A DNA stretch of 64,000 nt from an uncultured Acidobacteriota bacterium (GTDB taxonomy: Bacteria > Acidobacteriota > Thermoanaerobaculia > Multivoradales > UBA5704). Where the stretch lies: positions 4,672,001 through 4,736,000 of the forward strand of contig CAVYRF010000002.1 of assembly GCA_963770895.1 (NCBI GenBank), read 5' to 3'. Under the pieces are notes generated by a model. That model saw nothing but the letters and a program-made list of their open reading frames with translations. It was not told the origin of the DNA and searched no databases. A program made the translations under genes and the position numbers. Below are positions 14,208-37,430 of this stretch, piece after piece. Numbering within the stretch: the stretch's first letter is position 1; each line of letters opens with the position of its first letter.

Positions 14208-14296
14208 TAGACGACAACTGCCACGCGGCGAGCGCGATCGCGGAGCGCAACCTGAGCGGCGCCGCCTCGACGGAAGACCTGCGCGGCGCGATGGTC

Positions 14297-14545: not shown

Positions 14546-14755
14546 TTATGGATTACGCCACTTGTCGGGTTTACCCTTGGACGTGTGTCGAACTCGCTCC
14601 ACATGGATCGCGGCACCAGGCTCAAGCTGCCGCGCGCTCTCAATGGCTTCGGCTTGCGTATCCTTTACGGTGCTGGCTCTTTCTGAATTGGGCCGCCGCA
14701 CAGCGTAGTCACCTTGAGGCCGACGTTCAACGTACAACTCCTTCTTTTCCGCCAT
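14546..14755 (-). CDS. DUF2188-domain small protein
   Basis: YAVRRPNSERASTVKDTQAEAIESARQL; RBS GGGAG. Confidence 0.75.
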   Translation of the reverse strand: MAEKKELYVERRPQGDYAVRRPNSERASTVKDTQAEAIESARQLEPGAAIHVERVRHTSKGKPDKWRNP

Positions 14756-14772
14756 AGGCACTCCCTGCTGCC

Positions 14773-15527: not shown

Positions 15528-15760
15528 ACCTCCATTCCACAGCCGAATGTTACGCCCGAGATATGGCCCGCGCAAGCCGGCGCCGGGCACGCCGGCTGGG
15601 GCTTCTAGCAAATCTGAGCCTGGACATTGGCGGACAGCGGGAATCGCGTATGGGACCGGCCAAGCACAGGCCGGTTGGCGGTAGGGGTAAGGTGGTATAG
15701 AATTTGAGGTACTACGTCCGGGTGGCCATTTTTTGCTGGTCTGAGGTGGAGGGAGTGCGT

Positions 15761-22744: not shown

Positions 22745-22928
22745 CGGCAGCGCGCGGCTCGCGCGCGGGCCGGCGCGCCCCGCGCCATGACAAACGTCAC
22801 CGAGGAGTGATTACGGAAAGCCCTGGGCGGCAGCGGCGGTGCCGCGGCAAGATGGATCATGGAGCCCGCGCCCTGGCGCAAACGAATCGCGAGAGGCGGT
22901 GAAGAACCACCGCCGTGAGGGGAACCGA

Positions 22929-23633
22929 ATGGCAGAGCAAGCATCGAATCAAGCCCTGGTGCAGGTGCGCGACGTACACAAGTACTACCGGCGCGGCTCC
23001 GAGCGGCTCGATATCCTGAACGGTTTGAGCCTCACCATTCCGGCCGGCGACTTTCTGGCCCTGATGGGCCCGTCCGGCTCCGGCAAGACGACGCTGCTCA
23101 ACCTGCTCGGCGGCCTGGACCGCCCCAGCAGCGGCACGTTGGAGGTCGGCGGCGAGGCGATCGATCAGGTTTCCAATTCCAAGCTGGCAGGCTGGCGCGC
23201 GCGCCACATCGGCTTTGTGTTTCAGTTTTACAACCTGCTGCCGGTGCTGACCGCCGAGCGCAACGTCGAGCTGCCGCTGCTGCTCACCAACCTGTCCAGC
23301 GCCGAGCGCAAGAAGCACGTGGCGACGGCGCTCGCCGTGGTCGGCCTGGCCGACCGCGCGCAGCACTATCCGCGGCAGCTGTCGGGCGGCCAGGAGCAGC
23401 GGGTGGGCATCGCCCGCGCCATCGTCACCGACCCGACGCTGCTGCTGTGCGACGAGCCGACCGGCGACCTGGACCGCAAGTCCGGCGACGAGATCCTGGA
23501 CCTGCTGCAGGCGCTCAACAGCGAGCACGGCAAGACCATCGTCATGGTCACCCACGATCCGCATGCCGCCGCCCGCGCCCGCCGCACCCTGTACCTGAAC
23601 AAGGGTTCTCTTGCCACGGAGCCGGCGGAATGA
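22929..23633 (+). CDS. ABC transporter ATP-binding protein (LolD/MacB-type)
   Basis: [32 protein letters not shown]. Confidence 0.95.
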
Positions 23634-24784
23634 AATACCTTTTCCTGGTCCTCAAGAACCTCCGGCGCCGGCTGGTGCGCACCACGTTCACGGCGCTTTC
23701 GATCGTCATCGCGTTCCTGCTGTTCGGCCTGCTGGTGGCGATCCGCACCGCGTTCAGCGGCGGCGTTGACGTGACCGGCGCCAACCGGCTGACCGTCACG
23801 CACAAGGTGTCGATCATCCTGCCGCTGCCCGTTTCGTACGGCGACCGGATCGCGCAGGTCCCCGGCGTCAACCTGGTGACCCATGCCTCGTGGTTCGGCG
23901 GCACCTACCAGGATCCCAAGAACTTCTTTCCGCAGATGGCGGTGGACCCCACCAGCTACCTGGCCGTCTACCCCGAGATCCAGCTGCCGCCCGAGCAGAA
24001 GAAGGCCTGGCTGGCCGACCGCGGCGGCTGCATCGTCGGGCGCCTGACCGCCAAGCGCTTCGGCTTCAAGCTGGGCGACCACATCCCCATCCAGGCGACG
24101 ATCTTCGTCAAGAAGGACGGCTCGCGGATGTTCGACTTCCTGGTCGACGGCATCTACGACGCCCCCAAGGGTTTCGACACCAGCGCGCTGTTCTTTCAGT
24201 ACGACAACCTCAAGGAGTCGGCCCCCGGCTTCAGCACCAACCAGGTCGGCTGGTACATCCTCACCGTCGCCGATCCGAAAAACGCCAACCAGGTCGCCGA
24301 GCATATCGACGGCCTGTTCACCAACTCGGTGGCGGAGACCAAGACCTCGACCGAAAAGGCGTTTGCGGAGGGCTTTGCCAAGCAGACGGGCAATATCGGC
24401 GAGATCATCTCCTTCATCGTCGCGGCGGTGTTCTTCACCCTGCTGCTGGTGGCCGGCAACACCATGGCGCAGTCGGTGCGCGAGCGCACCGGCGAGCTGG
24501 CGGTGCTCAAGACGCTGGGCTTCGGCGATGGCCTGGTGATGGGGCTGGTGCTGTGCGAATCGTGCCTGCTGGCGCTCGCGGCGGCGACCCTGGGCCTGGG
24601 CGCCGCCTACCTGGTCGCCCGCAACGGCGATCCCACCGGCGGCTTCCTGCCCCTGTTCCGGCTGCCCGAAAGCCAGCTGGTCGTGGGTTTCCTGCTGGCC
24701 CTGGCGCTCGGTCTGGTGACCGGCGCGGTGCCGGCCTGGCAGGCGATGCGATTGCGCATCGTCGACGCGTTGCGGAGGGTCTGA
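23630..24784 (+). CDS. ABC permease (MacB/FtsX family)
   Basis: KNLRRRLVRT N-terminus, SVRERTGELAVLKTLGF, 4-TM architecture. Confidence 0.92.
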   Translation: MKYLFLVLKNLRRRLVRTTFTALSIVIAFLLFGLLVAIRTAFSGGVDVTGANRLTVTHKVSIILPLPVSYGDRIAQVPGVNLVTHASWFGGTYQDPKNFFPQMAVDPTSYLAVYPEIQLPPEQKKAWLADRGGCIVGRLTAKRFGFKLGDHIPIQATIFVKKDGSRMFDFLVDGIYDAPKGFDTSALFFQYDNLKESAPGFSTNQVGWYILTVADPKNANQVAEHIDGLFTNSVAETKTSTEKAFAEGFAKQTGNIGEIISFIVAAVFFTLLLVAGNTMAQSVRERTGELAVLKTLGFGDGLVMGLVLCESCLLALAAATLGLGAAYLVARNGDPTGGFLPLFRLPESQLVVGFLLALALGLVTGAVPAWQAMRLRIVDALRRV

Positions 24785-24787
24785 GCC

Positions 24788-25981
24788 ATGGGTCTGTTCA
24801 GTTGGATGTCGCAAGTCGGGGCGGTGACCCAGCTCAATCTGCGCACTCTGGGCCAGCGCCGCGGCGCCTCGGCGGCGACGGTGTTCGGCGTCGCCGGCGT
24901 GGTGATGGTGTTCGTCGGCGTGCTGTCGATCGCCGCGGGCTTCCGCTCGACCCTGGCCTCCACCGCGTCGCCCGACGGCGCCATGGTGCTGCGCGGCGGT
25001 GCCAGTTCCGAGATGCTCTCCGGCGTGTCGCGCGACGGCGCGCGCATCATCGCCGACGCGCCGGGAATCCTGCGCACGCCGACCGGTCCGGCGTCTTCGG
25101 CGGAGCTGTACGTGATCGTCGGTCTGCCCAAGATCGCCACCAGGACCGACGCCAACGTGCCGCTGCGCGGCGTGCAGCGCAACGGCTTCGTCGTGCACAA
25201 GGACATCAAGCTGGTCGCCGGCCGCATGTTCGAATGGGGCCGCAACGAGGTGATCGTGGGCACCGGCTCGGCGCAGGAGTTTTCCGGCCTGACGCTGGGC
25301 TCGACGCTGCGCTTCGGCGAAGCCAGCTGGCAGGTGGTGGGGCTGTTTTCCAGCGGCGGCTCGTGGGCCGAGTCGGAGATCTGGGGCGACGTGGACGTGC
25401 TGATGCCCGCCTACCGCCGCACCGGCTTCCAGTCGGTGCACGTCAAGCTGGCGTCGCCGCAGGACTTCGACCGCTTCAAGGACGCCTTGACGACCGATCC
25501 GCGCCTGGACGTCAAGGTGATCCGGGAAGCCGACTACTACGCCGAGCAGTCCCAGGCGCTGGTCACCATCGTCACCATCCTGGGCGTGGGTATCACGGTG
25601 CTGATGGGCATCGGCGCGGTGTTCGGGGCAATTCTCACCATGTATTCGGCGGTGGCGCAGCGCACGCGCGAGATCGCCACCCTGCGCGCCCTGGGCTTCG
25701 GCGGCGGCGCGGTGCTGGTGTCGGTCTTGGCCGAATCCTTCGTGCTGTCGCTGGCCGGCGGCACGCTGGGCGCCGGCATGGCCTACCTGCTGTTCAACGG
25801 CTACCACACCTCGACGCTGAACTTTCAGACCTTCAGCCAGGTGGCGTTCGCCTTCAAGGTGACGCCCGTGCTGCTGCTGCTGGCCCTCATCGGCACCTTG
25901 CTGATGGGCCTGATCGGCGGCATCTTCCCGGCGGCGCGCGCCGCCCGCATGCCGATCGCGAGCGCCCTGCGCGAGGTGTGA
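24788..25981 (+). CDS. ABC permease (MacB/FtsX family)
   Basis: AVAQRTREIATLRALGF, PAARAARMPIASALRE. Confidence 0.92.
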   Translation: MGLFSWMSQVGAVTQLNLRTLGQRRGASAATVFGVAGVVMVFVGVLSIAAGFRSTLASTASPDGAMVLRGGASSEMLSGVSRDGARIIADAPGILRTPTGPASSAELYVIVGLPKIATRTDANVPLRGVQRNGFVVHKDIKLVAGRMFEWGRNEVIVGTGSAQEFSGLTLGSTLRFGEASWQVVGLFSSGGSWAESEIWGDVDVLMPAYRRTGFQSVHVKLASPQDFDRFKDALTTDPRLDVKVIREADYYAEQSQALVTIVTILGVGITVLMGIGAVFGAILTMYSAVAQRTREIATLRALGFGGGAVLVSVLAESFVLSLAGGTLGAGMAYLLFNGYHTSTLNFQTFSQVAFAFKVTPVLLLLALIGTLLMGLIGGIFPAARAARMPIASALREV

Positions 25982-26871
25982 TGCCGGGGGGCGGCGGTGG
26001 GGGCGCGGCGCGCGCCCCGGCGATCGAAATCGTCGCCCATCGCGGCGCCGGCACCGATCGCGATCGGCCGGCCGCCGGGCAGGCGCAGCGGCCGGCGGCG
26101 CCGCCGGAGAACACCCTGGCGGCGCTGGCGTGGGGGTGGGCCGCGGCGCGGGCCTGCGAGATCGACGTGCACCTGACGCGCGACCGGCGGGTGGTGGTGA
26201 TCCACGACCCCACCACCGGGCGCACCTGCGACCGCGACCTGCGGGTTGCCGAGGCCGATTTTGAGGATCTGCGCCGGTTGGACGCCGGCGCCAGGAAAGG
26301 GCCGCCCTGGACGGGTGAGCGCCTGCCGTCGCTGCGCGAGGCGCTGGAGCTGATGCCGCCGGACGGGCGCCTGTACGTCGAGGCCAAGAGCGGCCCCGCC
26401 ATCGTCGAGCCGCTGCTGGCCGACATCGCCGCCGCCGGCCGCGGTGCCGGCCAGGTGGTCTTGATCAGCTTCGGCATCGACACCATCTGGGCGCTCAAGC
26501 GCGCCTGGCCGGCGCTGCCGTGCTATTGGGTCCTGGGCTTCGAAGAGATCAGCCGCGGGCGCTGGCGCGCGACGTGGGAAGAGAGCGCCGGGAGCGAGCG
26601 GGAGCCACGCTCAGTATTGCAGGAGCCGGTCGACTACGCGGCGCTGGCCCAGATGGTGCGCGGGCAGGGGGGCGCCCTGGACGGCCTGGACGTCAGCGCC
26701 CGCCAGCCGGAGGGCTTTGCCGCCGCCATGGCCGCGGCCGGCATCCCCTGGGGCGCCTGGACCGTCGACGACGGCGCCACCGCCCTGGCGCTGGTGCGCA
26801 AGGGCGCCATCCAGCTGACCACCAACTGCCCGGCCGACCTGACCGCCGCGCTGGCCCACGCCGGCATCTGA
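25981..26871 (+). CDS. Glycerophosphodiester phosphodiesterase family protein
   Basis: IVAHRGA, PENTLAA, EIDVHLTRD..VVIHD, AWTVDD, LTTNCP. Confidence 0.85.
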   Translation: MPGGGGGGAARAPAIEIVAHRGAGTDRDRPAAGQAQRPAAPPENTLAALAWGWAAARACEIDVHLTRDRRVVVIHDPTTGRTCDRDLRVAEADFEDLRRLDAGARKGPPWTGERLPSLREALELMPPDGRLYVEAKSGPAIVEPLLADIAAAGRGAGQVVLISFGIDTIWALKRAWPALPCYWVLGFEEISRGRWRATWEESAGSEREPRSVLQEPVDYAALAQMVRGQGGALDGLDVSARQPEGFAAAMAAAGIPWGAWTVDDGATALALVRKGAIQLTTNCPADLTAALAHAGI

Positions 26872-26950
26872 ACGACGCCTTGCCGGGCTACGCCCCCCGG
26901 CCGGGTGGTCACCCGGCGGGCGACGGACCGGCGCCGTGGGCGTGGGCCGC

Positions 26951-28534
26951 TCAGCGGCTGGCGGCGTCGGGTGCGGGGACGAAGGCGGCGTGGAAGGCGG
27001 GCGGGACGGTGCGGCCCAGGAGCAGCTCGGCGCGGGGGCCGGCGGTGATGTCCAGGGTGTCGAAGAGCAGGTAGCCGCTTTCGCCGCGATCGGCGGCGAA
27101 GAGGGGGCAGATGAGGGTGCCGCCGGCTTGGCCGGGCGGCGCCGGGGCGACGGCGGGTTCGCCGGTCAGGTAGCGGCCTGGCGGGGCCTGCCAGACGGCC
27201 GGCGGGGGAGCGCCGGGGCGCCAGCTGCCGTGCACCAGCTGGTCGTAGAACTTGCGGCCGGGGCGGCCGGCGGCGGCGATGCCCAGGGTCCAGAAGTCGT
27301 CGGGGGCGCGGCCGTCGGGCTGCGGCAGGGTGACCGGGAAGTCGGGCGCCAGCTCGTAGGCAAGGGTCCGGCGCTCGGCGATGCGGCCCTGCGCCAGGTC
27401 GACGACCAGGCGGACGGGGCGGCCGGCGCCGACGTCGGCCAGCAGGTGGGGGACCTCCTGGTACTGGTCGTAGACCGGCCGGTCCAGCTCCAGGAAATCG
27501 ACGACCAGCCGGCCTGCCGCATCCTCGCCGGCAGCGATGCCGTGCAGGCAATAGCCGCCGGGGAGGGGTACGCGCAGTGCCGCCGCTTGGCCGGTCGCGG
27601 GTGCGGGGCCGGCGGGCTCCAGGTGGCTGCGCGGGACGATTAGCAGCTCGCTGGCGGCGCGGTGTGGCTGCCAGCTGAGGGCTTCGTGCAGGCAGGCGCC
27701 GTTGGCGGTGACGGCTTCCAGGTCGAGGCAGAACGGGCTGACATGGAAGATGACGTGGTGTGGCGCCAGCAGGAAATCGTGGATCGATACCGGCAGGGCG
27801 AGCGCGACGCGGTGGCGGGCGATGAGAGTCCCGCCGGCGGAAAAGCGGTACAGGTGCAGGCAGGGGCTTTGGCGCGAGTAGGACAGGCCGAAGTTGTAGA
27901 GCTCGCCGGTCGCTGGATCGACCTTGGCGTGGGCGGCGAAGGGGCTGACCGGGTTGAGGCCGCCGCCGAAGGTGAAGGGGCCGCGGGTGGCGAGCGTCGC
28001 GGGATCGATCTCGCAGGGCAGGCCCTGTTCGCCGCAGGCCAGCAGGGTGCCGGCAAAGGGGATGACGCTGACGTTGACCGGCGACGCCAGGGCGATGCCG
28101 CGCTCCAGGCGGTCGCCGGCGAAGCGGGTGCCGAAGGCGCGGAAGAGCGCCTGGCCCGCCTGCTCTTCGGCCATCCACTTGGCGCTGCGCACGAAGCGGT
28201 TGGCGAAGTGGACGTTGCTTCCGGCATCACCATTACCACCGCTGATTCCGGTGCCGCCGGCACCGCCGCCGTCGCCGTGACCGTCGCTGTCTTTGGCGCC
28301 GCCGCCCGCGCCGGCCCCGCTGAAGGTGAGCGCCGCGATCATGCCGTCGCCGTCCAGCCAGTGCCGGTAGCGCAGCTGGCCGCGGGCGAAGCGGGCGGGG
28401 CCGTTCCAATAGCAGGTGCCGCGCAGGCCGGCGGGCACCTCGCCGGCGGCAATCCGCACCGCGCCGGCGCCCTCCTGCGGCAGCTCGAAGGCGCCTTCCA
28501 GTCCCGGCGCGTAATCGGCCGGCGGGCGGGTCAC
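26951..28534 (-). CDS. Carotenoid/stilbene cleavage dioxygenase (RPE65 family)
   Basis: GTCYWNGP, HWLDGDGM, NRFVRS; four Fe-ligand His in FAAHAKVDP, SIHDF, CLHG, AFHAAF; GEPAVAP. Confidence 0.88.
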   Translation of the reverse strand: MTRPPADYAPGLEGAFELPQEGAGAVRIAAGEVPAGLRGTCYWNGPARFARGQLRYRHWLDGDGMIAALTFSGAGAGGGAKDSDGHGDGGGAGGTGISGGNGDAGSNVHFANRFVRSAKWMAEEQAGQALFRAFGTRFAGDRLERGIALASPVNVSVIPFAGTLLACGEQGLPCEIDPATLATRGPFTFGGGLNPVSPFAAHAKVDPATGELYNFGLSYSRQSPCLHLYRFSAGGTLIARHRVALALPVSIHDFLLAPHHVIFHVSPFCLDLEAVTANGACLHEALSWQPHRAASELLIVPRSHLEPAGPAPATGQAAALRVPLPGGYCLHGIAAGEDAAGRLVVDFLELDRPVYDQYQEVPHLLADVGAGRPVRLVVDLAQGRIAERRTLAYELAPDFPVTLPQPDGRAPDDFWTLGIAAAGRPGRKFYDQLVHGSWRPGAPPPAVWQAPPGRYLTGEPAVAPAPPGQAGGTLICPLFAADRGESGYLLFDTLDITAGPRAELLLGRTVPPAFHAAFVPAPDAASR

Positions 28535-30528
28535 CGCTGGCCGCTCCCGCCTATCGCGCTCCGCGGCGCCGGTACTGTCGCCGGCGCCAGCCCACGATTC
28601 GGCAAATCCGCTCCAGTGTCCGACGACCCCGGCTCGCGGTCACGGTCCGGCGACGCCGGTCCCTGCTCGGCCGCTGCCGCAGCCTCGGCGCCGGTGTCGC
28701 CGGTGTCGGCGGAGCTGGGCGCGACGGTGCGGAAGCGCTGCATGCAGGCGGTCTGGAGGCGCCAGGGGTGGGGTGGGGCGCCGTCGGGGATGGCGGCCAC
28801 GCGGGCGGCGATCGCCGCCGGGTCGAAGTCGAAGCGGCGCAGATCGATGGCGCTGACGAAGTCCGCCGAGAGCGCGCGCGGGTCGCCGCTGACCACGGCG
28901 CTGGCGTGGGCGACGATGAAGCGCGCCAGCTCTTCGAGGTTGTCGAGCTGCTCGGTCAGGACCGGGCGCGCCTCCTGGGCCGTCAGGCCGACGCGGTAGA
29001 AGCAGGCTTCGGCGGCGCGCAGGTGGCCGAACTCGTAGAAGTCGAAGTGGCGCGGCGCGGCGGCCGCGGCGGCGGTGTCCGGCGACTGTCCGGCGTGCTG
29101 GTTTTTCCAGCGGTAGAAGCCGACCAGGAAGGCGTGCAGGTTGCGATTGGTCGGTCCCAGACGGGCGAAGTGGCGCAGGAACGAGGGGATGAACTGGCGG
29201 TCGGTGAACAGGTCGTTGATGAACGGAAAGACGAAGAACGAAAAGTAGACGCTGAGCTCCCAGACGTAGCGCAGGGTGAAGACCTCCTGGTCGCCCAGGA
29301 CTTCGTAGCTGACGGCGAAGCTGGGCACGTAGGCTTCGTAGACCCAGCGCGCCAGCTCTTCGTAGAGGCGCACCTTGCCGGCGAGCTCCCGCGCGTCGTC
29401 GGTCAGGATGGCGTCGACCACCAGGGTGTTGTAGATCGAGATCAGGTCGCCGCCCGGGCTGTACAGCGGGTCGGAGAAGCGGCAGGCTTCGCCGCACATC
29501 GCCCACCGCGCGGCCGACAGGGTTTGCGAGCTGTCCAGGGCGAAATCGACGTAGCCGCCCCAATCCACCACCTTGCGCTGCGGCAGGTCGCGCGCGAACA
29601 TCGGATACTGGCGGCAGACCCATTCGATCATCTTGTCCGGCGTCGCCACCTGCTCGCGCGGCACCAGGTTGCGGTCGTAGACCAGGCCCAGGCTGGTCTT
29701 GCCGTGCAGCGGGATGGTCCAGAACCAGTAGCCTTCGCCGCAAAAGTGATTGGTTGCCAGGAACGCCGGCAGGTGGCCGAGCGCCGCGCGATCGCGGCGC
29801 TTGCGCACGCCGGGCGCGTCCAGGTCGGTGAGGCGCTCGATGTCCACCAGCCCTTCGACCCAGCAGAACGTCGTGCCGTGGTGGATCGGGCTGGGGGCGA
29901 CCAGCTTGCGGCGCCGCGCCAGGACCCGCGCCCGCCCCGAGGCATCGACCACCCACGCCGCGCGTCCCGCGATCTCGCGGTCGCCGCTGCGAAAGCGGAA
30001 GCGATGGCCGCCAGCGCTGCGGGCGCTGCCGGTGTCGCCAGTACCCGAGCCGTCGGCCGCATCGGTGGCGTCGCCGGCCTGGACGCCGGCGGCGTCGTCC
30101 AGCTGGATGTCCAGCCCCTCGGTGGGGGCGTGCAGCTCGAAGCGCGGCGACAGCAGATTGACGCGCAACAGCTCGGCTTCGAAGGCATTGCGGTCCAGCT
30201 GGTAGGTGGCGATGTTGGAAAGGCCGCGGATGTAGGACTGGCTGAGCTCTTCGTAGCGGTCCGCCGCGCCCGCCGGCCCCGGCCAGTAGAAGCGCAGGTT
30301 GTACTTGAGGTAGTGCTCGCACAGCAGGTGCTCTTCCATCTGCAGCACGCGCGAATAGTAGTAGCCGCTCACCTGCACCGTCGCTTCGCCCACCTTCTGC
30401 CGCGCCGGCGGCAGGGGACGGCGATCGACCAGCAGCACCCGCCGGTCGGAATACAGCAGCAGCTGCCGGGCCAGGGAGAGCCCCGCCAGGCCGCCGCCGA
30501 CGATCAGCACGTCCACCTGCTGGGTCAT
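28531..30528 (-). CDS. Flavin-dependent halogenase-family protein
   Basis: IVGGGLAG, KVGEAT, YLKYNLRF (candidate catalytic Lys), VDASGR, WFWTIP (WxWxIP), FSDPLYSPG. Confidence 0.8.
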   Translation of the reverse strand: MTQQVDVLIVGGGLAGLSLARQLLLYSDRRVLLVDRRPLPPARQKVGEATVQVSGYYYSRVLQMEEHLLCEHYLKYNLRFYWPGPAGAADRYEELSQSYIRGLSNIATYQLDRNAFEAELLRVNLLSPRFELHAPTEGLDIQLDDAAGVQAGDATDAADGSGTGDTGSARSAGGHRFRFRSGDREIAGRAAWVVDASGRARVLARRRKLVAPSPIHHGTTFCWVEGLVDIERLTDLDAPGVRKRRDRAALGHLPAFLATNHFCGEGYWFWTIPLHGKTSLGLVYDRNLVPREQVATPDKMIEWVCRQYPMFARDLPQRKVVDWGGYVDFALDSSQTLSAARWAMCGEACRFSDPLYSPGGDLISIYNTLVVDAILTDDARELAGKVRLYEELARWVYEAYVPSFAVSYEVLGDQEVFTLRYVWELSVYFSFFVFPFINDLFTDRQFIPSFLRHFARLGPTNRNLHAFLVGFYRWKNQHAGQSPDTAAAAAAPRHFDFYEFGHLRAAEACFYRVGLTAQEARPVLTEQLDNLEELARFIVAHASAVVSGDPRALSADFVSAIDLRRFDFDPAAIAARVAAIPDGAPPHPWRLQTACMQRFRTVAPSSADTGDTGAEAAAAAEQGPASPDRDREPGSSDTGADLPNRGLAPATVPAPRSAIGGSGQR

Positions 30529-31895
30529 GGTGCCTCCTCCTGGCCGACGCTGCCGAAGATCAGGGCCGCGCAGTGGCCGTCGGCGCTGATCGCCGTCGCC
30601 AGCGCCCGCCGCGTGCCGCCGCCCGCCGCCGGGGGCAGCTGCCGGCTGGCGGCGGACAGCCCGGCGAGCGGCAGGCCGGGCTCGACGCGCTGCAGGCCGG
30701 CGATGCCCGGCACCAGCCCGTCGGCGAAGGTTTCCACCAGGTCGATCGCCTGCCAGGCGCCGCTCGCTCCCATGCCTTCGCCGAGCATCGCCTTGACGGC
30801 GGCGGCAGGCAGCTGGACCGGCGCCGTCGCCGCGCCCAGGCCGGCGGCGATGCCCAGCGCTTCGGCGCGGTCGATCACCGGGCTGCCGCTGGCGGAGGTG
30901 GAGAGAAAGTCGATGTCGCCGGGCGCCAGGCCGGCGTCGGCCAGCGCCAGGTGCACGGCGCGCGCCAGCGCCTCGGCCAGGGCGGCGCTCCCCACGGGCG
31001 CGCTCAGGCGGTCGGCGTCGTCGCTGGCATTGCCGCCATGACCGCCATTGTCGCCGCCGCGGTCGCCGTCGCCAGCGGCAGCGTCGCCGGCGGCAAAGGC
31101 GGCGCCCCAGCCCAGCACCTCGGCGCGCGGCACCGCCCGGCGCGCCGCCGCCGCGGCGCCGTCTTCGAGCATCAGCAGGCCGGCGCCTTCGGAGAGGCTG
31201 AAGCCGTTGCGGTGCTCGTCGAACGGCACCGGCCGCTCGCCGGGCGCGCCGCCGCGGCGCGTGCCGCACAGGCGCTCGGCGCGCGCGTGGCTGATGAACG
31301 ATTCGAAGCAGAGCTCTTCGACGCCGCCGGCGAGCACCGCCTTGGCGCGGCCGGTGCGCACCAGCTCGGCGGCTTGCGCGATGGCCAGCAGCCCGGACGC
31401 CTCGCCCGCGGCGAGCGTCGAGTTGACGCCGCGCAGGTGGTGCCAGATGGCGGTCTGGCCGGCGGCGGCGTTGATGACGCTGTTGGCGAATTCGAACGGG
31501 CTGGCGTGGGTCGGCCCCAGCTGCTTGGCGCGGCGGTCGAATTCGGCGATGGTGCGCAGGCTGCAAAAGGTGGTGCCGGCCACCAGGCCCACCTCGCCCT
31601 GGGCGCGCTCCGCTTCGCTCCAGCCGCTGGCGGCGAGCGCCAGCTGCGCCGCCACCACCAGCAGCCGCGACGTGCGGTCGAGCGGGCGCAGGTTGCGCTC
31701 GCCGACGTAGGACTGCGGGTCGAAGGGGCGGATCTCGCCGCCCTGCTGGGGGCCCAGGACGGCGGTGGCGAACAGCTCGATGGGGCGGCGCGCGACGACG
31801 CCCTGGGCCAGCGCCCGGTGCATGGCGGCCGGCGCATCGCCGAGCGGCGACAGCACGCCCGCGCCGGTGATCACCACCCGCCGCGGCGACGTCAC
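30525..31895 (-). CDS. Type II PKS chain-length factor (inactive KS, polyene/highly-reducing type)
   Basis: KS fold with Cys replaced (AGEASG), no HGTGT (SASGS), KAMLGE; FANSVINAAAGQTAIWHHLRGVNST. Confidence 0.82.
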   Translation of the reverse strand: MTSPRRVVITGAGVLSPLGDAPAAMHRALAQGVVARRPIELFATAVLGPQQGGEIRPFDPQSYVGERNLRPLDRTSRLLVVAAQLALAASGWSEAERAQGEVGLVAGTTFCSLRTIAEFDRRAKQLGPTHASPFEFANSVINAAAGQTAIWHHLRGVNSTLAAGEASGLLAIAQAAELVRTGRAKAVLAGGVEELCFESFISHARAERLCGTRRGGAPGERPVPFDEHRNGFSLSEGAGLLMLEDGAAAAARRAVPRAEVLGWGAAFAAGDAAAGDGDRGGDNGGHGGNASDDADRLSAPVGSAALAEALARAVHLALADAGLAPGDIDFLSTSASGSPVIDRAEALGIAAGLGAATAPVQLPAAAVKAMLGEGMGASGAWQAIDLVETFADGLVPGIAGLQRVEPGLPLAGLSAASRQLPPAAGGGTRRALATAISADGHCAALIFGSVGQEEAP

Positions 31896-33157
31896 GCCAC
31901 CGCCTTGCGGAAGATCGTCGACGCGTTGTTGCCGCCAAAGGCGTAGGCGTTGTTCATCGCCACCTGGACGCGGTGGTCGCGCGCCGCGTTCGGCACGAAG
32001 TCGAGGTCCCCCTCCGCCTCCGTCATCCCCATCGTCGGCGGGATGCGATCGCCGGCGACCGCCAGCGCGCACACCGCCGCCTCGATCGCCGAGGCGGCGC
32101 CCATGGTGTGGCCGATCATCGATTTGACCGAGCTGATCGGCACCCGCGCGCCGGCGCCGAAGACCTGCCCCACGGCGGCGATCTCCAGGCGGTCGTTGGT
32201 CGGCGTGCCGGTGCCGTGGGCGCTGATGTAGCTGACGTCGGCCGCCGTCACGCCGGCGTCGGCCAGCGCGTGCCGCATGGCGCGCACGGCGCCCTCCGCC
32301 TGGGGGTGCGCGGCGGTCATGTGGTGGGCGTCGCACGACAGGCCGTAGCCGGCGATCTCGGCGTAGATGCGTGCCCCGCGGCGGCGGGCCGCCGCCAGCG
32401 GCTCGAGCGCCAGGACCGCCGCCCCCTCGCCGGGGATCATGCCCTTGCGGTGGCGGTCGAACGGCTGGCAGCGTTCGGGCGCGATGGCGCCCAGGCGGGC
32501 GAAGCCGGTGTAGGTGATGCGCGAAAAGGCGTCGGCGCCGCCGGCCAGCATCAGGTCGGCGCGGCCGGCGCGCAGGATGTCCATGGCGTGCGCCAGGGCG
32601 TGGTTGCCGGCGGCGCAGGCCGCCGGCAGCATGGCGTTCATGCCGGCGAACCCGACTTCGCGCGCCACCTGCGCGGCGATCAGGTGGCAGGGGTAGAGGG
32701 TCATGAAGTCTTCGCCCACCCGCTCCATGTCGCCGGCCAGCAGGTAGTCGTCGAAGCGCTCGATCTCCAGCGGCTCGCCCGAGGTGGTCCCCATCGCCAC
32801 GCCGGCGCGCACGGCGGCGATGCCCGCCCGGTCGAGCGGGCCGCCCGGGCCGGCCAGCGCCGCCGGCGGCAGGTCGCGCGCGCCGTCGAACCCGGCGTCG
32901 GCGAGCGCCAGGCGGGCGGCGGCGATCGCCATCTGCGAAGCGCGGCCCATGCGGCGCGGATCGAGGGTGCGGACAAACGCCTGCGGCGAGAAGTCGCGCA
33001 CCTCGGCGCCCAGGTGCACGGTCATGGCGCTGGTGTCGAAGGAGGCCACCGGCGCGAAGCCCAGGCGGCCGGCCAGCAGCGACTCCCACAGCCGCTCGCG
33101 GCCGGTGCCGACCGGAGTGACCGCGCCGATGCCGGTGACGGCGATGCGCGGCGTCAC
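31892..33157 (-). CDS. Type II PKS / FabF-like ketosynthase
   Basis: Catalytic triad intact: AACAAG, HGTGT, KSMIGHT; NAYAFGGNN. Confidence 0.92.
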   Translation of the reverse strand: MTPRIAVTGIGAVTPVGTGRERLWESLLAGRLGFAPVASFDTSAMTVHLGAEVRDFSPQAFVRTLDPRRMGRASQMAIAAARLALADAGFDGARDLPPAALAGPGGPLDRAGIAAVRAGVAMGTTSGEPLEIERFDDYLLAGDMERVGEDFMTLYPCHLIAAQVAREVGFAGMNAMLPAACAAGNHALAHAMDILRAGRADLMLAGGADAFSRITYTGFARLGAIAPERCQPFDRHRKGMIPGEGAAVLALEPLAAARRRGARIYAEIAGYGLSCDAHHMTAAHPQAEGAVRAMRHALADAGVTAADVSYISAHGTGTPTNDRLEIAAVGQVFGAGARVPISSVKSMIGHTMGAASAIEAAVCALAVAGDRIPPTMGMTEAEGDLDFVPNAARDHRVQVAMNNAYAFGGNNASTIFRKAVA

Positions 33158-33441
33158 TCCGCCGCCACCGCGGACACCGGACTGGCGGCCGCTTGCAGCT
33201 CGGCGTGGCGCTGGATCACCAGGTCGACCAGGCTGGGCAGGTCCTCGATGCCGCGGTACGCCTCGTCAGGCAGGTTGAGCTGGAACGCCAGGTCGACGTC
33301 GACGCCGATCTCCAGCAGCGACAGCGAGTCGAGGTTGAGGTCGGCGCGGAGCTTCGCGTCGTCGCTAATCCGCTCGGGGTTGATGCCGGCGATGCTGCCG
33401 ATGATCTTCTTGACCTTGCCTGTGATCTCGGGGCGATCCAT
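33154..33441 (-). CDS. Acyl carrier protein
   Basis: DLNLDSLSLLEI; RBS AGGAGA; 4-bp overlap with KS. Confidence 0.9.
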   Translation of the reverse strand: MDRPEITGKVKKIIGSIAGINPERISDDAKLRADLNLDSLSLLEIGVDVDLAFQLNLPDEAYRGIEDLPSLVDLVIQRHAELQAAASPVSAVAAE

Positions 33442-33620
33442 GGCGTTCTCCTGTGGGTATGCGGACGTTGCAAAGTCGCGTACGTTGGCGATCCGGCCGG
33501 CTTGCGCCAGGCCGTGAGTCGAGCTCGCGTCGGTGCGGCCGGCAAACGCCGGCGCAGATGCGGCCCTATTCCGATGTTCGGGAAGCGGCCGGCACGACGT
33601 GAGTGTCCGTGATGGCCACG

Positions 33621-33674
33621 ATTATAGGCCATATAGGCGATCTACGTGTCCCATTTGTTACCGACCCCGCGGAA
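33621..33674 (-). promoter_or_regulatory. Putative promoter of the ACP-KS-CLF operon (-10 TATAAT) with a degenerate TetR-box upstream
   Basis: ATTATA at 33621-33626 (TATAAT on minus) in an AT-rich patch; TACCGACCCCGCGGAA at 33659-33674. Confidence 0.4.
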
Positions 33675-33864
33675 GCGTACCTTAACAATAAAGCAGGCGC
33701 ACCTGGCGGCTCGCCTCCGGCTGGCCGCAGGCGGGTGGCGCCGCGCTTCAGTGGACCGGCGCCAGGACCAGGCGGCAGGCGACGGCTCTGTTGTCGAGCT
33801 GGTCGTGGGCGACGCTGGCGGCGTCCAGCGGCAGGACTTCGGAGGGAAGACTAGCGGGCGCGCG

Positions 33865-34272
33865 TCACGACGCCTGGCGCTCCGCCGCCAGGCAGGGGCG
33901 GAACTTGTAGCCGTAGACGATGTAGCCGTGCGGGCCGTTTTCGCGCAGCCGGCGGGTCACCATTTCCACCGGCATGCCGATCGCCACCTGGTCGGGATCG
34001 ACGTCGGTCAGCTGGGCGGTGACGCGGACGCCCTCTTCGAGGTCCACCAGGGCCACCATGTAGGGACCGGAAAAGCCGAGCGGCGGCTGCGCCACCTCGG
34101 CGAACGAATATACCGTGCCGCGGCCGCTGAAACGGTGGGGTGCGGCGTCGCGGCTGCCGCAGGCGCCGCAGGCCGGGCGCGGCGGGAACTGCACGGCGGC
34201 GCAGGCGCGGCACCGCTGCCCCTCCAGGCGGTAGTACGGCGCGGTCAGGCGGTGGTAGCGCGGCAGGTCCAT
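33865..34272 (-). CDS. DUF35 Zn-ribbon/OB-fold protein
   Basis: GQRCRAC...FPPRPACGAC, GTVYSF, PYMVALVDLEEG, IGMPVEMVTRRL, YGYKFRP. Confidence 0.92.
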   Translation of the reverse strand: MDLPRYHRLTAPYYRLEGQRCRACAAVQFPPRPACGACGSRDAAPHRFSGRGTVYSFAEVAQPPLGFSGPYMVALVDLEEGVRVTAQLTDVDPDQVAIGMPVEMVTRRLRENGPHGYIVYGYKFRPCLAAERQAS

Positions 34273-34276
34273 GGCG

Positions 34277-35425
34277 TCAGGCCTCCAGAACGTGGGTCAC
34301 GGCGATCGAGCCGTGGCCGCCGATCGACTGGGTGAGGGCGACGCGCGCGCCCGGCACCTGGTTGGCGCCGGCCTCGCGGCGCAGCTGGGCGGCGGCTTCG
34401 ACGATCTGGTAGGCGCCGCTCGCCCCCACCGGGTGCCCGCGCGCCTTGAGGCCGCCGCAGGTCGACAGCGGCACGCAGCCGCCGTTTGCGAAGCACCCGT
34501 GGGCGGCGCGCTTGAGCGCTTCGCCGCGGGGGGCGAAGCCGCAGGCTTCGAGCGACAGGGCGGTGATGATGGTGAAGGCGTCGTGGGCCTCGAAGAAATT
34601 GCAATCCTTGGGCGCGAAGCCGCTGGCCGCGAACGCCTTTTCCGCCGAGCGGCGGGCGGCGGCCAGGGTCAGCAGGTCGGCGCGGCCGGCCAGGCCGATG
34701 GTGTCGGTGGCGACGGCCGAGGCGGCGATGCGCACCTGGCGGTGCTCGGGGCGCAGCGCCGGGCGGGCGCAGACCACCACCGCCGCGGCGCCGTCGCACA
34801 CCGGCGCGGCGTCCAGCACGCCGATGGGGGCGGCCACCTGCGGCGAGCGGGCGAACTGTTCGCGCGAGATGGGCTCGCGGAACATCGCGTTGGCGTTGGC
34901 CGCGGCGTTGCGGTGGGCGTTGACCGCGAAGGGCGCAAACTCTTCGCGGCTGGCGCCCGTCTCGTGCATGTAGCGCCGCATGAGCAGCGCCGAGAGCGCC
35001 ACGAACGACAGGCCGTGGCTGGCTTCGAAGTCGCCGTCGGCGGCGGTGGCCAGGCCGCCGGTCACCTGGTCGGAGACGGCGTCGGTCATCTTTTCGACCC
35101 CCACCGCCACCGCCACGTCGTGGACGCCGGCCGCCACCGCCAGGGTCGCGGCGCGCACCGCCGCCGCCCCCGAAGCGCAGGCGGCCTCCACCTTCCAGGC
35201 TTCCGCCGGCAGCAGCCCGGCGGCGTCGGCCAGCAGGGCGCCCAGGTTTTCCTGGCCGTTGAGCGCGCCGCCCAGCATGTTGCCGGCGTAGAGCGCGTCC
35301 ACCGCTTCGATGCCGGCGTCGGCCAGGGCGGCGCGCACGGCGGCCGCTCCCAGGTCGCGCAGGCCCAGGCCCCAATGCTCTCCCACCGGCGTCTGGCCGG
35401 CGCCGACGATGAAGACGTCTCTCAT
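34277..35425 (-). CDS. Archaeal-type (SCP-x-like) acetoacetyl-CoA thiolase
   Basis: VEAACASG, GVEKMTD, EAHDAFT, GGLKARGHPVGASG. Confidence 0.9.
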   Translation of the reverse strand: MRDVFIVGAGQTPVGEHWGLGLRDLGAAAVRAALADAGIEAVDALYAGNMLGGALNGQENLGALLADAAGLLPAEAWKVEAACASGAAAVRAATLAVAAGVHDVAVAVGVEKMTDAVSDQVTGGLATAADGDFEASHGLSFVALSALLMRRYMHETGASREEFAPFAVNAHRNAAANANAMFREPISREQFARSPQVAAPIGVLDAAPVCDGAAAVVVCARPALRPEHRQVRIAASAVATDTIGLAGRADLLTLAAARRSAEKAFAASGFAPKDCNFFEAHDAFTIITALSLEACGFAPRGEALKRAAHGCFANGGCVPLSTCGGLKARGHPVGASGAYQIVEAAAQLRREAGANQVPGARVALTQSIGGHGSIAVTHVLEA

Positions 35426-36489
35426 GCGCGCCGGATCTTTCCCCGCAGCCGCAGGTATTGGCCGTAGCCGTCGACCAGGCGCCGGCGGTCCAGGTAGTTG
35501 GCGACGGTGGGGCCGGCGCGGCGCGCGGCGATGCGCTCCGTCACCTCGAAGGAGAAAGCATCGCTGCCGGCCCCCGAGCCGTAGGAGCAGAAAAAGATCC
35601 GCTCGCCGGGCCGGGCCACGTCCAGAACCGCCGCCAGGCCGAGCAGCGACGAGCCCGAATAGGCGTTGCCCATGCGCGTCGCCACCAGGCCGGTGGCGAT
35701 CTGCTGGCGCGCGAAGCCCAGCTCGGCCGCGGCTTTTTCGACGAACTTGGGCACCGGCTGGTGGAACACGGCGTGGGCAAAGTCGCGCGGCTGGCGCCCC
35801 ACTTCGGCCAGCAGGCGCCGCGACGCCGCCAACGTGTGATGAAAGTAGGAAGGCTCGCCGGTGAAGCGGCCGCCGTGCTCGGGATAGTGCGCCGCCTCGC
35901 GGCGGAAAAAGTCCGGCGTGTCGGTGACGTGCGACACCGACGCTTCGACCACCGCCAGGGCGTCCGCGGCGTCGCCGAACAGGTAGGCGGCGCCGCCGCA
36001 GCCGGCGGTGTACTCCAGGGCGTCGCCGGGCTTGGCCTGCGCCGTGTCCATGCCGATGGCGAGCGCCGCTTCGACCATGCCCGAGCCGACGAAGGCCACC
36101 GCCGCCTGCATCGCTTCGCTGCCCGCCTTGCAGGCAAACTCCATGTCGGCGGCTACCACGTGCGGCGTGATCCCCAGCGCTTCGGCCACCACCGTCGCCG
36201 AAGGCTTGACCGCGTAGGGCTTCGATTCCGTCCCCACCCACACGGCGCCGATCTGGCGCTGCACCGCGTCGCGGTCGAGCGCGGCGCCGGCGCGGTCGAG
36301 CGCCGTGCGCGCCGCTTCGATCGCCATCGTCACCACGTCTTCGTCGGCCGCGGCCACCGACTTTTCGGCCACCGCCGGCGCGGCGCTGCCGCGCGCCCGC
36401 CAGGTGGCGGCGATGTCGGCGGTGCGCACGCGCAGGCGCGGCACGTAGGCGCCGTAGCCGGTGATCCCGACGGCGCGTTGCGATCTCAT
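35422..36489 (-). CDS. Archaeal-type hydroxymethylglutaryl-CoA synthase
   Basis: GTESKPYAVKP, DMEFACKAG (catalytic Cys), TDTPDFFRR, RFTGEPSYF, FHQP, GNAYSGSS, SYGSGAGSDAF. Confidence 0.9.
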   Translation of the reverse strand: MRSQRAVGITGYGAYVPRLRVRTADIAATWRARGSAAPAVAEKSVAAADEDVVTMAIEAARTALDRAGAALDRDAVQRQIGAVWVGTESKPYAVKPSATVVAEALGITPHVVAADMEFACKAGSEAMQAAVAFVGSGMVEAALAIGMDTAQAKPGDALEYTAGCGGAAYLFGDAADALAVVEASVSHVTDTPDFFRREAAHYPEHGGRFTGEPSYFHHTLAASRRLLAEVGRQPRDFAHAVFHQPVPKFVEKAAAELGFARQQIATGLVATRMGNAYSGSSLLGLAAVLDVARPGERIFFCSYGSGAGSDAFSFEVTERIAARRAGPTVANYLDRRRLVDGYGQYLRLRGKIRRA

Positions 36490-37238
36490 CGTGCAGGCCC
36501 TTTCGGGGTGGCCGGCGGCGCTGGCGCCGCTGAAGAGTGGCCGGCCGGAGCGCGCGGGCGGCGCGGTTTTTGCGCCGGGCGGCGGCGCGCGCGGCGCGCG
36601 GTGGGAGTGGCGGCGGCGGCGCCGGCGGTCGACGGCGCGATCTCCAGGCCGCCGAAAAACAGGTCGAGCATGTCGGCGGCCAGGCGGTCGGCCGGGATCT
36701 TGCCGTCGGGGCGAAACCATTTGTAGATCCACAGCACCATGCCGAGAAACGAGAACGCCGCCACCCGCGGCTCGACCGGGCGGATGCGCCCTTCGCGCAG
36801 CGCCTCTTCGAACGAGGCTTCCAGGAAGTGCACGTAGCGCTTCTTGCGGGCGTTGATCTGCTGCCGCGCCGCGCCGGTCAGGGTTTCGTGCTCGTGCAGG
36901 ATGATGGTGACCTCCTTGCTCCAGCCCTCGGTCACCAGATGGATGTTCTTTTCCATGCACGCCTTCAACCGCTCGACCGGATCGGCGATCGCCAGCACCG
37001 GCAGCAGCACCTGCTCTTCGAAGATATCCATGCCGTAGCTCATGATTTCGAGCAGCAGGTCTTCCTTGCTACGGATGTAGTAATACAGCCCGGCCTTGGT
37101 CAGCCCGCAGGCTTCGGCGATGTCGTTCACCGACGCCGCTTCGTACCCCTTGTCGCAGATCAGCCGCGCCGCCGTCTCCAGCACCGCCCGATGCCGCTCG
37201 CGATGGACATCCGACCCCGCCTCCGGCGTGCGCGCCAC
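36486..37238 (-). CDS. TetR/AcrR-family regulator
   Basis: KGYEAASVNDIAEACGLTKAGLYYYIRSKEDLL; C-terminal WIYKWFRPDG (KstR2/PaaR-like). Confidence 0.92.
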   Translation of the reverse strand: MARTPEAGSDVHRERHRAVLETAARLICDKGYEAASVNDIAEACGLTKAGLYYYIRSKEDLLLEIMSYGMDIFEEQVLLPVLAIADPVERLKACMEKNIHLVTEGWSKEVTIILHEHETLTGAARQQINARKKRYVHFLEASFEEALREGRIRPVEPRVAAFSFLGMVLWIYKWFRPDGKIPADRLAADMLDLFFGGLEIAPSTAGAAAATPTARRARRRPAQKPRRPRAPAGHSSAAPAPPATPKGPAR

Positions 37239-37255
37239 GGAAAATTCCTTTCAGA

Positions 37256-37293
37256 TACCGACCACTCGGTAGAATTCTACCGATCGGTCGGTA
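37256..37293. promoter_or_regulatory. Tandem palindromic TetR operator
   Basis: TACCGACCACTCGGTA-GAATTC-TACCGATCGGTCGGTA, 18 bp upstream of the tetR start. Confidence 0.8.
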
Positions 37294-37430
37294 GTCTAGG
37301 TCCGCCATTCCCGGACTGTCAAGGGCGCCCGGAACGTGCGGGGGAGCGTGCCGGCGTTGGGGTCTGGTATCGTGCCGGTCGCCTGGTGCGGCGGCGGAGG
37401 AGCCGCGGTGCGGCGGGCGCCTGGGAATTC

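Follow-up and report, generated by a model that had tools for sequence, protein, structure and literature searches.

We analysed a 64-kb stretch of DNA from an uncultured member of the Acidobacteriota (positions 4,672,001 to 4,736,000 of contig CAVYRF010000002.1, assembly GCA_963770895.1; hereafter the window), which has a G+C content of ~72%. Genes were called by combining a frame plot of third-codon-position G+C (GC3) with open reading frame (ORF) calling and translation, and protein families were assigned with Pfam and NCBIfam. Positions 26951-33441 hold five minus-strand genes in ~6.5 kb (Table 1), which encode an acyl carrier protein (ACP), a FabF-like ketosynthase (KS), a KS paralogue resembling a chain-length factor (CLF), a large protein of the flavin-dependent halogenase kind (HAL) and an RPE65-family carotenoid-cleavage oxygenase (CCO). 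All five are intact, with conserved catalytic residues and a strong GC3 bias, and each of the four gene junctions is a 4-bp start/stop overlap (GTGA or ATGA), which bears out the translational coupling claimed in an earlier reading of the sequence (the original prediction). The five-gene cassette described there is confirmed: Pfam families, motifs and the HAL fold agree on the gene identities, and both the WxWxIP motif of HAL and the four iron-binding histidines of the CCO are present, as had been stated. No cassette protein reaches an NCBIfam curated equivalog cut-off.

The ACP matches Pfam PP-binding at 32.3 bits and the NCBIfam models for fatty acid synthase (FAS)-type ACPs at ~43 bits, below their cut-offs; its phosphopantetheine serine, Ser39, is kept in 49/49 family members. 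The KS scores 136 and 122 bits against the N- and C-terminal Pfam ketoacyl-synt models and 376 bits against the NCBIfam fabF model TIGR03150 (cut-off 494), and its catalytic set Cys181/His278-279/His314/Lys345 (Cys-His-His-Lys-Phe) is intact in 45/45 relatives. The CLF-like protein (103 and 50 bits against the same Pfam models) is 28% identical to the KS; its Glu165 aligns with KS Cys181, and the second histidine is replaced by Ser. Across the CLF family (n=48) the Cys position is occupied by Glu in 40 members and Ala in 8, the second His is Ser, Gly or Ala, and the tunnel residues Phe136 and Val140 are invariant (48/48). The prediction that this subunit is inactive thus stands, given the exchange of Cys for Glu165 within 'AAGEASG', but the inactivating change does not lie in the 'NAAAGQ' motif, which is situated ~25 residues upstream in the tunnel helix.

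Among solved structures, the best match of the KS is 9s5h_B (432 bits), ahead of Iga11 of the ishigamide system (286), Thermus FabF (277), the actinorhodin KS (207), AntD (158) and the aryl-polyene KS 6qsp (148); the scores for Iga11 and FabF are nearly equal. The CLF likewise matches 9s5h_C best (190 bits), followed by ordinary FabFs (146-120), Iga11 (110) and the actinorhodin CLF (89), and the ishigamide CLF is absent among the 60 of 73 PDB matches listed for it. Chain C of 9s5h has Val at the Cys position, and 9s5i is a similar entry with an additional ACP chain. From the molecule names, the chain composition and this Val we infer that both entries represent the amxFabF2/amxFabFmut heterodimer of the anammox bacterium Brocadia, although the main text of the corresponding preprint gives no PDB codes. 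According to that preprint, this heterodimer was crystallised alone and with C8-ACP, Val replaces Cys in the mutated subunit, the two proteins are active only together, decarboxylating malonyl-ACP and forming acetoacetyl-ACP, the reaction is faster with C6-C8 than with C16 probes, and Phe135 and Val139 of amxFabFmut line the tunnel near C8 (10.64898/2026.05.19.726425). In our alignment the equivalents of these two residues are CLF Phe136 and Val140, and their presence in both proteins points to a short chain. By homology to chains B and C of 9s5h, the KS and its CLF-like partner would form a heterodimer; a separate AlphaFold2 (AF2) model of the KS, built from an 8-row alignment, had a pLDDT of 34.6 and was not used. 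The original prediction had placed the CLF with the highly reducing type II polyketide synthases (PKSs) that make polyenes. This assignment is not supported, as both subunits match 9s5h best and FabFs outscore Iga11 for the CLF; a polyene product is possible but not indicated, because no dedicated ketoreductase (KR) or dehydratase (DH) recurs in the 80 related loci described below.

For HAL, the Pfam Trp_halogenase model covers only residues 6-83 (27 bits), all NCBIfam matches are far below cut-off, and the N-terminus weakly resembles LodB/QhpG-type monooxygenases (35 and 19 bits, NCBIfam). The protein nonetheless carries the GxGxxG motif (G11/G13/G16), Lys75, W268-x-W270-x-I272-P273 and F351-x-x-P354-x-x-S357-x-G359, which are kept in 69-75 of 75 family members, the shortfalls being gaps in truncated sequences. 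An alignment of the window protein with 24 homologues (A1) was used both for the genome scan described below and for an AF2 model (pLDDT 79.8, pTM 0.81), in which a long, highly conserved helical C-terminal domain of its own is followed by a disordered tail (602-665). When this model was compared with the PDB using Foldseek, ranks 1-25 were all flavin-dependent halogenases and rank 26 was 3nix, an uncharacterised flavoprotein; matches to CtcP, PltM, PltA, ChlB4, CmlS and CndH had E values of 5e-22 to 2e-16 at 16-20% identity. Halogenases also made up 11 of 13 PDB matches by sequence and 17 of 18 by profile search. Profile alignments place Lys75 opposite lysines of CndH and CmlS that we take to be the catalytic ones of those enzymes. 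We accept 'halogenase' as the best class assignment for HAL, its activity being predicted from sequence and model. Several of its nearest structural relatives (PltA, ChlB4, CndH, Mpy16 and Bmp2) act on carrier-bound substrates; a complex prediction for HAL(1-602) with the ACP returned a score of 0.01, which is evidence neither way.

Homologues of HAL are numerous: of 8000 candidates scored, 2177 matched at E<=0.001. Identity is 57-97% for the 120 matches listed, whose organism names, where given, are all from the Thermoanaerobaculia. Trp_halogenase-domain proteins of ~580-640 aa that resemble one homologue (P0009) occur in Actinomycetota, Bacteroidota and Pseudomonadota. Longer, fused forms of HAL did not turn up in a search for them, which is weak evidence. 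In a plasmid collection searched by tblastn, relatives of HAL and the CCO were only distant (25-30% identical), and their contexts were uninformative or of type I PKS character.

The CCO matches Pfam RPE65 at 254 bits (cut-off 27). Its predicted iron ligands His202, His252, His331 and His515 align with those of the Synechocystis apocarotenoid oxygenase (ACO, 2biw), and the second shell comprises Glu169, Asp398 and Glu459. Of these, His202, His252, His331 and the three acidic residues are kept in 61/61 family members and His515 in 59/61. ACO is also the best PDB match (117 bits, full length), stilbene-cleaving enzymes scoring 62-83 bits. Against NCBIfam the protein reaches 58-100 bits where cut-offs are 650-800, and the best models, at 100 and 99 bits, are lignostilbene dioxygenases. 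Stilbene-cleaving CCOs have a phenol-binding Lys before the second-shell Glu, whereas the residue before Glu169 is Gly in 61/61 members; together with the low equivalog scores, this sets the protein apart from enzymes of the lignostilbene/NOV type. Judged by sequence similarity, the CCO is about equally distant from carotenoid-type and stilbene-type enzymes.

Species-representative genomes scanned with alignment A1 yielded 161 HAL relatives, and 80 of the 161 loci were analysed, their content being determined by local tblastn with the window proteins and by position rules. All 80 come from metagenome-assembled genomes (MAGs) of Acidobacteriota, assigned to Thermoanaerobaculia, Thermoanaerobaculaceae, Holophagales and 'gp7'. 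A CCO gene directly follows HAL in 58 of the 66 loci that extend at least 1.8 kb beyond it, or 59 if L066, in which HAL is cut by the contig end, is included; it is missing from this place in L026, L036, L040, L043, L061, L064 and L076. The two genes share a 4-bp overlap in 6 of the 7 relatives with genes called. ACP-KS-CLF stands immediately before HAL, in the order of the window, in 20 of the 59 loci whose upstream flank measures at least 3 kb, and KS and CLF lie within 10 kb of HAL in 28 of the 38 loci with full 10-kb flanks; in L008, L013, L018 and L035 the ACP-KS-CLF genes come after the CCO and not before HAL. The original prediction had named a lack of conserved synteny as a refuting outcome; the arrangement is in fact conserved elsewhere. 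As gene order and catalytic residues both recur in related loci, the cassette is more than a chance assembly; on the sequence comparisons made here, it is a lineage-wide feature, probably inherited within Acidobacteriota of the Thermoanaerobaculia/Holophagales type. The window itself, judged by these relatives, most likely derives from such a bacterium and not from an actinomycete.

A second kind of context involves a SnoaL-like gene (Pfam SnoaL, 99.5 bits), found directly upstream of HAL in 7/59 loci with room and in 0/28 loci with KS and CLF. Such a gene lies just upstream of HAL-CCO, with KS/CLF not nearby, in L042, L025, L032, L053-L055, L063 and L078, and in L042 it is preceded by three FG-GAP/ASPIC repeat proteins. 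Some MAGs contain two HAL loci, one with PKS genes and one without (L010 and L044; L038 and L041), so that a HAL gene lacking these neighbours may still have its partners elsewhere in the genome.

We also took a gene census, which covered 1205 ORFs with GC3 support from the 80 loci and from positions 16001-48000 of the window, 81 sources in all. There were 42 families in at least 4 sources, of which 36 were identified through Pfam or annotated genes; six short or opposite-strand families were left unscanned. By number of sources, the families include the halogenase (78), CCO (64), KS/CLF (51), ACP (46), a CrtI-like flavoprotein (25), an unknown 259-aa protein (21), an HMG-CoA-reductase (HMGR)-like protein (20), a PlsC-type acyltransferase (17), LuxR-type regulators (15), SnoaL-like proteins (11), CN-hydrolases (11) and a UbiB/ABC1 kinase (8). 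No KR, DH or thioesterase is among the 36 identified families, nor is FabZ or a radical-SAM protein; adh_short and FabZ/FabA-type genes were found neither beside the window cassette by Pfam nor in the 7 annotated loci. The fullest order, in L009, is LuxR-LuxR-ACP-KS-CLF-HMGR-like-CrtI-like-acyltransferase-halogenase-CCO-UbiB-like, and extended orders of this kind occur in L006, L007, L009, L020, L033 and others. Measured against known enzymes, the HMGR-like protein scores 322 bits as a class I HMGR (cut-off 442) and the CrtI-like protein 150 bits (cut-off 238). By tblastn, the whole 64-kb window has no HMGR-like gene, CrtI-like desaturase or acyltransferase. Many relatives add HMGR-like, CrtI-like and acyltransferase genes, which would make the cassette the core of a larger pathway family and the window copy its minimal form. 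In a tree of 74 HAL sequences the window groups with L001-L004 and L046, and compact, extended and PKS-less contexts are otherwise intermixed.

The divergent class I HMGR-like gene stands directly after the CLF gene in many loci, and twice where the ACP-KS-CLF module is duplicated. Tandem ACP-KS-CLF(-HMGR-like) modules were seen in L001, L012, L018, L029, L034 and L070; one module adjoins halogenase-CCO and the other adjoins the CrtI-like and acyltransferase genes. The KS sequences of both modules of L029 hardly differ (alignment A2), pointing to a recent event of duplication or gene conversion.

Two further observations concern the window cassette itself. An opposite-strand ORF at 29746-31041 (+), over HAL and CLF, recurs in 15 census sources and is a shadow ORF, not a gene. 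All four enzymes have Gly/Asp/Ala-rich low-complexity insertions (CCO 76-107 and 308-318; HAL 147-171 and 628-665; CLF 274-301; KS 92-109), which are shared by <15% of homologues and, in HAL, are disordered in the model.

The original prediction had noted that the operon encodes no KR, DH or cyclase, and this holds: a Pfam search around the window cassette gave no KR, DH, enoyl reductase, thioesterase, acyltransferase, cyclase, phosphopantetheinyl transferase (PPTase) or flavin reductase, and the only KR/DH-type domains of the window are inside distant genes of a nonribosomal peptide synthetase (NRPS)-PKS system. That system, at 47540-61944 (+), comprises a 3243-aa NRPS-PKS (condensation, adenylation, thiolation, KS, acyltransferase, KR and DH domains) and, after it, a 1558-aa PKS (KS, partial acyltransferase, KR and ACP); it lies 14 kb from the cassette and is a biosynthetic locus in its own right.

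Directly upstream of the cassette, beyond a 423-bp gap, lies an operon for a TetR regulator, HMG-CoA synthase (HMGS), thiolase and a DUF35 protein (Table 1). The synthase scores 468 bits with NCBIfam NF003274 (cut-off 244) and the thiolase 409 bits (cut-off 420); Pfam calls a DUF35/ChsH2 OB-fold protein, and the TetR/HMGS and HMGS/thiolase junctions are 4-bp overlaps. HMGS, thiolase and DUF35 are the three-protein set of archaeal mevalonate pathways, here in a bacterium. The triad lies beside the cassette in 0 of the 80 related loci and is for that reason treated as a neighbour only. Where the window cassette has this HMGS operon beside it, relatives carry an HMGR-like gene at the corresponding place. 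This HMGS operon and the HMGR-like genes after the CLF in other loci led us to consider an ACP-dependent mevalonate route fed by the KS, CLF and ACP, but we set it aside since the triad is absent from the 80 loci; in addition, the HMGR-like protein falls short of its cut-off (322 < 442 bits) and is duplicated in two-module loci, and no other mevalonate-pathway or prenyl-transferase gene was seen by Pfam, in the annotated loci or in the census. A PhlACB-type acyltransferase function for the triad was rejected on the HMGS equivalog score (468 bits against the cut-off of 244).

A sigma-70 scan of 26500-37600 found no site in the 423-bp gap and one promoter-like site in total, at 37322-37293, upstream of TetR. 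The gap has no Rfam match, Rfam and tRNA scans were empty, and terminator-like sites are not above chance (3 found, 3.5 expected). On the other side, convergent on the CCO 3' end, the plus-strand genes at 21503-26871 encode a MacA-like (HlyD) protein, an ABC ATPase, two FtsX/MacB permeases and then a glycerophosphodiester phosphodiesterase; the MacA/MacB-type genes are a possible product exporter, and MacB-type genes are near the cassette in 4 census sources. Farther away, at ~8000-16000, G+C drops to 0.59-0.64 from ~0.72 elsewhere, and the long ORFs mostly lack a Pfam match, the exceptions being a carboxypeptidase-regulatory/Ig-like protein and an NHL/beta-propeller protein; this stretch may be foreign or surface-protein DNA.

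Table 1 Features of the window and HMGR-like genes of related loci. Positions are those of the window unless preceded by a locus number.
Feature	Position	Strand	Description
Acyl carrier protein	33154..33441	-	95 aa, ATG start, phosphopantetheine Ser39 in 'LDSLS', Pfam PP-binding
Active FabF-like ketosynthase (KS)	31892..33157	-	421 aa, GTG start, Pfam ketoacyl-synt
Catalytically inactive KS paralogue, CLF-like	30525..31895	-	456 aa, GTG start, Pfam ketoacyl-synt
Flavin-dependent halogenase-like protein (HAL)	28531..30528	-	665 aa, ATG start, assigned by fold and motifs
RPE65/carotenoid-cleavage-oxygenase non-haem iron dioxygenase (CCO)	26951..28534	-	527 aa, GTG start, Pfam RPE65
Intergenic gap 5' of the ACP gene	33442..33864	.	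423 bp; probable promoter region of the cassette
TetR, archaeal-type HMG-CoA synthase, thiolase, DUF35 OB-fold protein	33865..37238	-	Directly upstream; treated as context of the cassette
HMGR-like genes	L009:5109-6392; L029:8614-9879 and 16396-17637; L013:16129-17307; L031:18989-20500		

The enzyme classes of the cassette, its intact catalytic residues, its translational coupling and its conservation are established at the level of sequence and model. The reading of them that we favour, though with somewhat less than even confidence, is that the five genes encode one pathway, in which a short ACP-bound chain would be halogenated on its carrier and then cleaved at a C=C bond by the CCO. By homology to the amxFabF heterodimer, the KS and its dead partner would decarboxylate malonyl-ACP to self-prime and extend the chain on the cassette ACP. 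A short chain of ~C6-C10 is probable, since the CLF has retained both of the tunnel residues that limit length in amxFabFmut. Processing of the beta-carbon, if any, would fall to housekeeping FabG/FabZ, since no KR or DH is encoded here or recurs in relatives, and the intermediate would then be an enolisable beta-keto or a conjugated enoyl/dienoyl thioester. HAL, as an enzyme of the CndH/PltA/ChlB4/CmlS kind supplied with FADH2 by a reductase encoded elsewhere, would halogenate an electron-rich carbon of this putative substrate, probably before the chain leaves the ACP. The four-His CCO would use O2 to cleave a C=C bond of the presumed halogenated chain into aldehyde or acid fragments, trimming or releasing the product, which would be a small halogenated, oxidatively cleaved acyl or polyketide compound. 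A more specific version, in which the CCO acts on a fatty-acid or polyketide intermediate so that carrier-bound halogenation and the C=C cut give small halogenated aldehydes or acids, seems to us rather doubtful; such products would perhaps be signals, as LuxR-type regulators are found in related loci.

Several points weigh against the single-pathway reading; the heaviest are the lack of a known precedent for either tailoring enzyme on such substrates, the ten full-flank loci without PKS genes and the extra genes of the window's closest relatives. The substrate of either tailoring enzyme is one that we infer. The carbons required by flavin-dependent halogenases are normally those of phenols, pyrroles, indoles or enols, and a polyene conjugated to a thioester is poor in electrons; CCOs are known to act on carotenoids, apocarotenoids and 4-hydroxystyryl compounds, and are not known to take acyl-ACPs. 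Near the cassette, Pfam gave no gene for a flavin reductase, PPTase or malonyl transferase. HAL occurs without KS/CLF within 10 kb in 10 of the 38 full-flank loci, and of these ten, 6 keep an adjoining CCO and 5 have a SnoaL-like gene directly upstream of HAL; the HAL tree does not separate loci with PKS genes from those without. The nearest HAL relatives (L001-L004 and L046) have an HMGR-like gene and/or both a CrtI-like and an acyltransferase gene beside the cassette, and because the window copy lacks these extra genes, it may depend on genes elsewhere or be incomplete. Finally, acetoacetyl-ACP was the only product that the amxFabF heterodimer made in vitro (10.64898/2026.05.19.726425).

The halt at acetoacetyl-ACP reported for the anammox relative would also suit an unreduced or aromatic route, in which a short poly-beta-keto chain cyclises to a phenolic or resorcinol-type ring with SnoaL-like cyclases helping elsewhere, HAL acts on the phenol in the manner of CtcP, PltM and CndH, and the CCO cleaves an aryl-conjugated or enolic C=C bond. 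Indeed, no KR or DH recurs in the 80 loci, the best HAL fold matches, CtcP and PltM, take phenolic or polyketide substrates, and SnoaL-like genes directly precede HAL in 7/59 loci. We nevertheless consider this route unlikely: SnoaL-like genes are absent from all 28 loci with KS and CLF, the window holds no aromatase or cyclase, the KS/CLF pair is far from the act pair (207/89 bits, against 432/190 for 9s5h), and the CLF has Glu or Ala where aromatic CLFs have Gln. One may also postulate that the cassette is a fragment of a membrane-lipid pathway whose real unit consists of ACP, KS, CLF, the HMGR-like, CrtI-like and PlsC-type proteins, HAL, CCO and UbiB-type kinases; it would make an unusual, possibly polyunsaturated lipid, as proposed for anammox bacteria and Desulfotalea, and the window would hold a reduced copy that depends on genes elsewhere or is decaying. 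The extended order of L006, L007, L009, L020 and L033, the census counts (CrtI-like 25, HMGR-like 20 and acyltransferase 17 of 81 sources) and the extended type of the window's closest HAL relatives all fit this proposal. So does anammox cluster I, in which a phytoene-desaturase homologue accompanies the ACP, the KS and its dead paralogue (PMC4790861; 10.64898/2026.05.19.726425), such clusters having been linked to polyunsaturated hydrocarbons (PMC2649909). The compact five-gene form, however, is present in 20/59 loci across several HAL clades, which shows it to be stable in its own right; the five window genes are all undamaged, keep the conserved catalytic residues and show a strong GC3 bias, and HMGR, desaturase and acyltransferase are lacking throughout the window, the only part of this genome that tblastn covered. 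On balance we hold the lipid proposal to be improbable.

A last scenario separates the cassette into two unrelated units, the HAL-CCO pair transforming an outside substrate (a plant or lignin phenylpropene, a stilbene or a carotenoid) and ACP-KS-CLF being a mere neighbour. It draws on the 10 of 38 full-flank loci in which HAL lacks nearby KS/CLF, on the four loci in which ACP-KS-CLF follows the CCO, and on the lignostilbene dioxygenases that head the NCBIfam matches of the CCO, though at 100 bits against cut-offs of 650-800. Yet the CLF stop and HAL start overlap by 4 bp, the identical compact order recurs in 20/59 loci, some MAGs hold HAL loci both with and without PKS genes, and the Gly before Glu169 in 61/61 CCOs stands where stilbene-cleaving enzymes have Lys, all of which leaves this separation quite unlikely in our view.

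If the more specific version set out above, with the CCO acting on a fatty-acid or polyketide intermediate, is correct, the cassette would provide the first CCO in an ACP-based biosynthesis, as well as a functional clue to 'ladderane-type' KS/CLF clusters outside anammox bacteria. To our knowledge, Acidobacteriota abound in soils while their specialised metabolism is almost wholly uncharacterised. The compactness of the cassette (6.5 kb, five genes), its conserved residues and the restriction of all 80 loci to Acidobacteriota make its heterologous expression a realistic goal. Knowing what it makes would give a function to the ~600-aa halogenase-like flavoproteins, a large and highly conserved family, and would test CCO substrates beyond carotenoids and stilbenes. 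The cassette is also a tractable relative of the anammox amxFabF heterodimer, the physiological product of which is unknown because anammox bacteria are not genetically manipulable, as stated in the preprint (10.64898/2026.05.19.726425).

The closest known system is anammox cluster I (Kuenenia KustE3603-3608), which shares with the cassette a dedicated ACP, an active FabF-like KS and a dead paralogue. That cluster comprises an ACP, FabZ, FabF, a non-canonical FabF, a phytoene-desaturase homologue and a radical SAM enzyme (PMC4790861 Table 2). The presumed anammox structure 9s5h is the best solved match of both subunits, the tunnel Phe and Val are kept, and the extended acidobacterial relatives carry a phytoene-desaturase-like flavoprotein. 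The differences are also clear: the window has no FabZ, B12-radical-SAM enzyme or desaturase, the hosts are Acidobacteriota and not Planctomycetota, and in the dead subunit Cys gives way to Glu or Ala, but to Val or Thr in the anammox proteins (10.64898/2026.05.19.726425). The window adds a halogenase and a CCO, neither of which is among the genes listed for cluster I (PMC4790861 Table 2). Relatives of the anammox cluster have been described in Desulfotalea and Geobacter, and Rattray et al. connected clusters of this kind with polyunsaturated hydrocarbons (PMC2649909); 'ladderane'-type clusters without a known function occur outside anammox bacteria (PMC7298704), and a poorly understood non-actinobacterial KS/CLF clade has been reported (PMC10132072). 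The loci studied here probably belong among these 'ladderane'-type or non-actinobacterial KS/CLF clusters.

The ishigamide system (Iga10-Iga12, 6kxd) resembles the cassette in its discrete KS, CLF and ACP, and Iga11 is the second-best solved match of the KS (286 bits). Highly reducing type II PKSs of that kind are defined by dedicated KR and DH genes, however, and neither occurs beside the window cassette or among the identified recurring families; the CLF, moreover, reaches only 110 bits against Iga11. Aryl polyene, xanthomonadin and flexirubin clusters combine a FAS-like KS/CLF with an ACP, and in some of them a flavin-dependent halogenase is accompanied by an acyltransferase of the lysophospholipid type, which attaches the pigment to lipid, a feature reminiscent of the extended acidobacterial clusters. 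Genes for KR, DH, thioesterase, an adenylating enzyme and transport belong to these clusters themselves, which are not known to include a CCO, and the aryl-polyene KS 6qsp scores only 148 bits against the window KS. Aromatic type II PKSs have a Gln at the Cys position of the CLF; Glu or Ala there, the scores against the act pair and a window without cyclase or aromatase set the cassette apart from them.

Among the tailoring enzymes, HAL shares its fold and the GxGxxG, WxWxIP and FxxPxxSxG motifs with CndH, PltA, ChlB4, CmlS, CtcP and PltM, but differs from known flavin-dependent halogenases in its 665-aa length, its own helical C-terminal domain and an identity of 16-20%. The CCO has the RPE65 domain, four histidines and second-shell acidic residues of ACO (2biw), NOV1 and the lignostilbene dioxygenases; it has low similarity to every characterised member, and its place in one operon with a KS/CLF has no precedent in the literature searched. 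The combination of KS/CLF, halogenase and CCO was in no paper found by full-text search, the coverage of which excludes subscription journals, in agreement with the original prediction, which knew of no characterised pathway with this content. A discrete KS/CLF-ACP system with tailoring enzymes is a known type, and the new elements of this locus are its CCO partner and its lineage-wide conservation.

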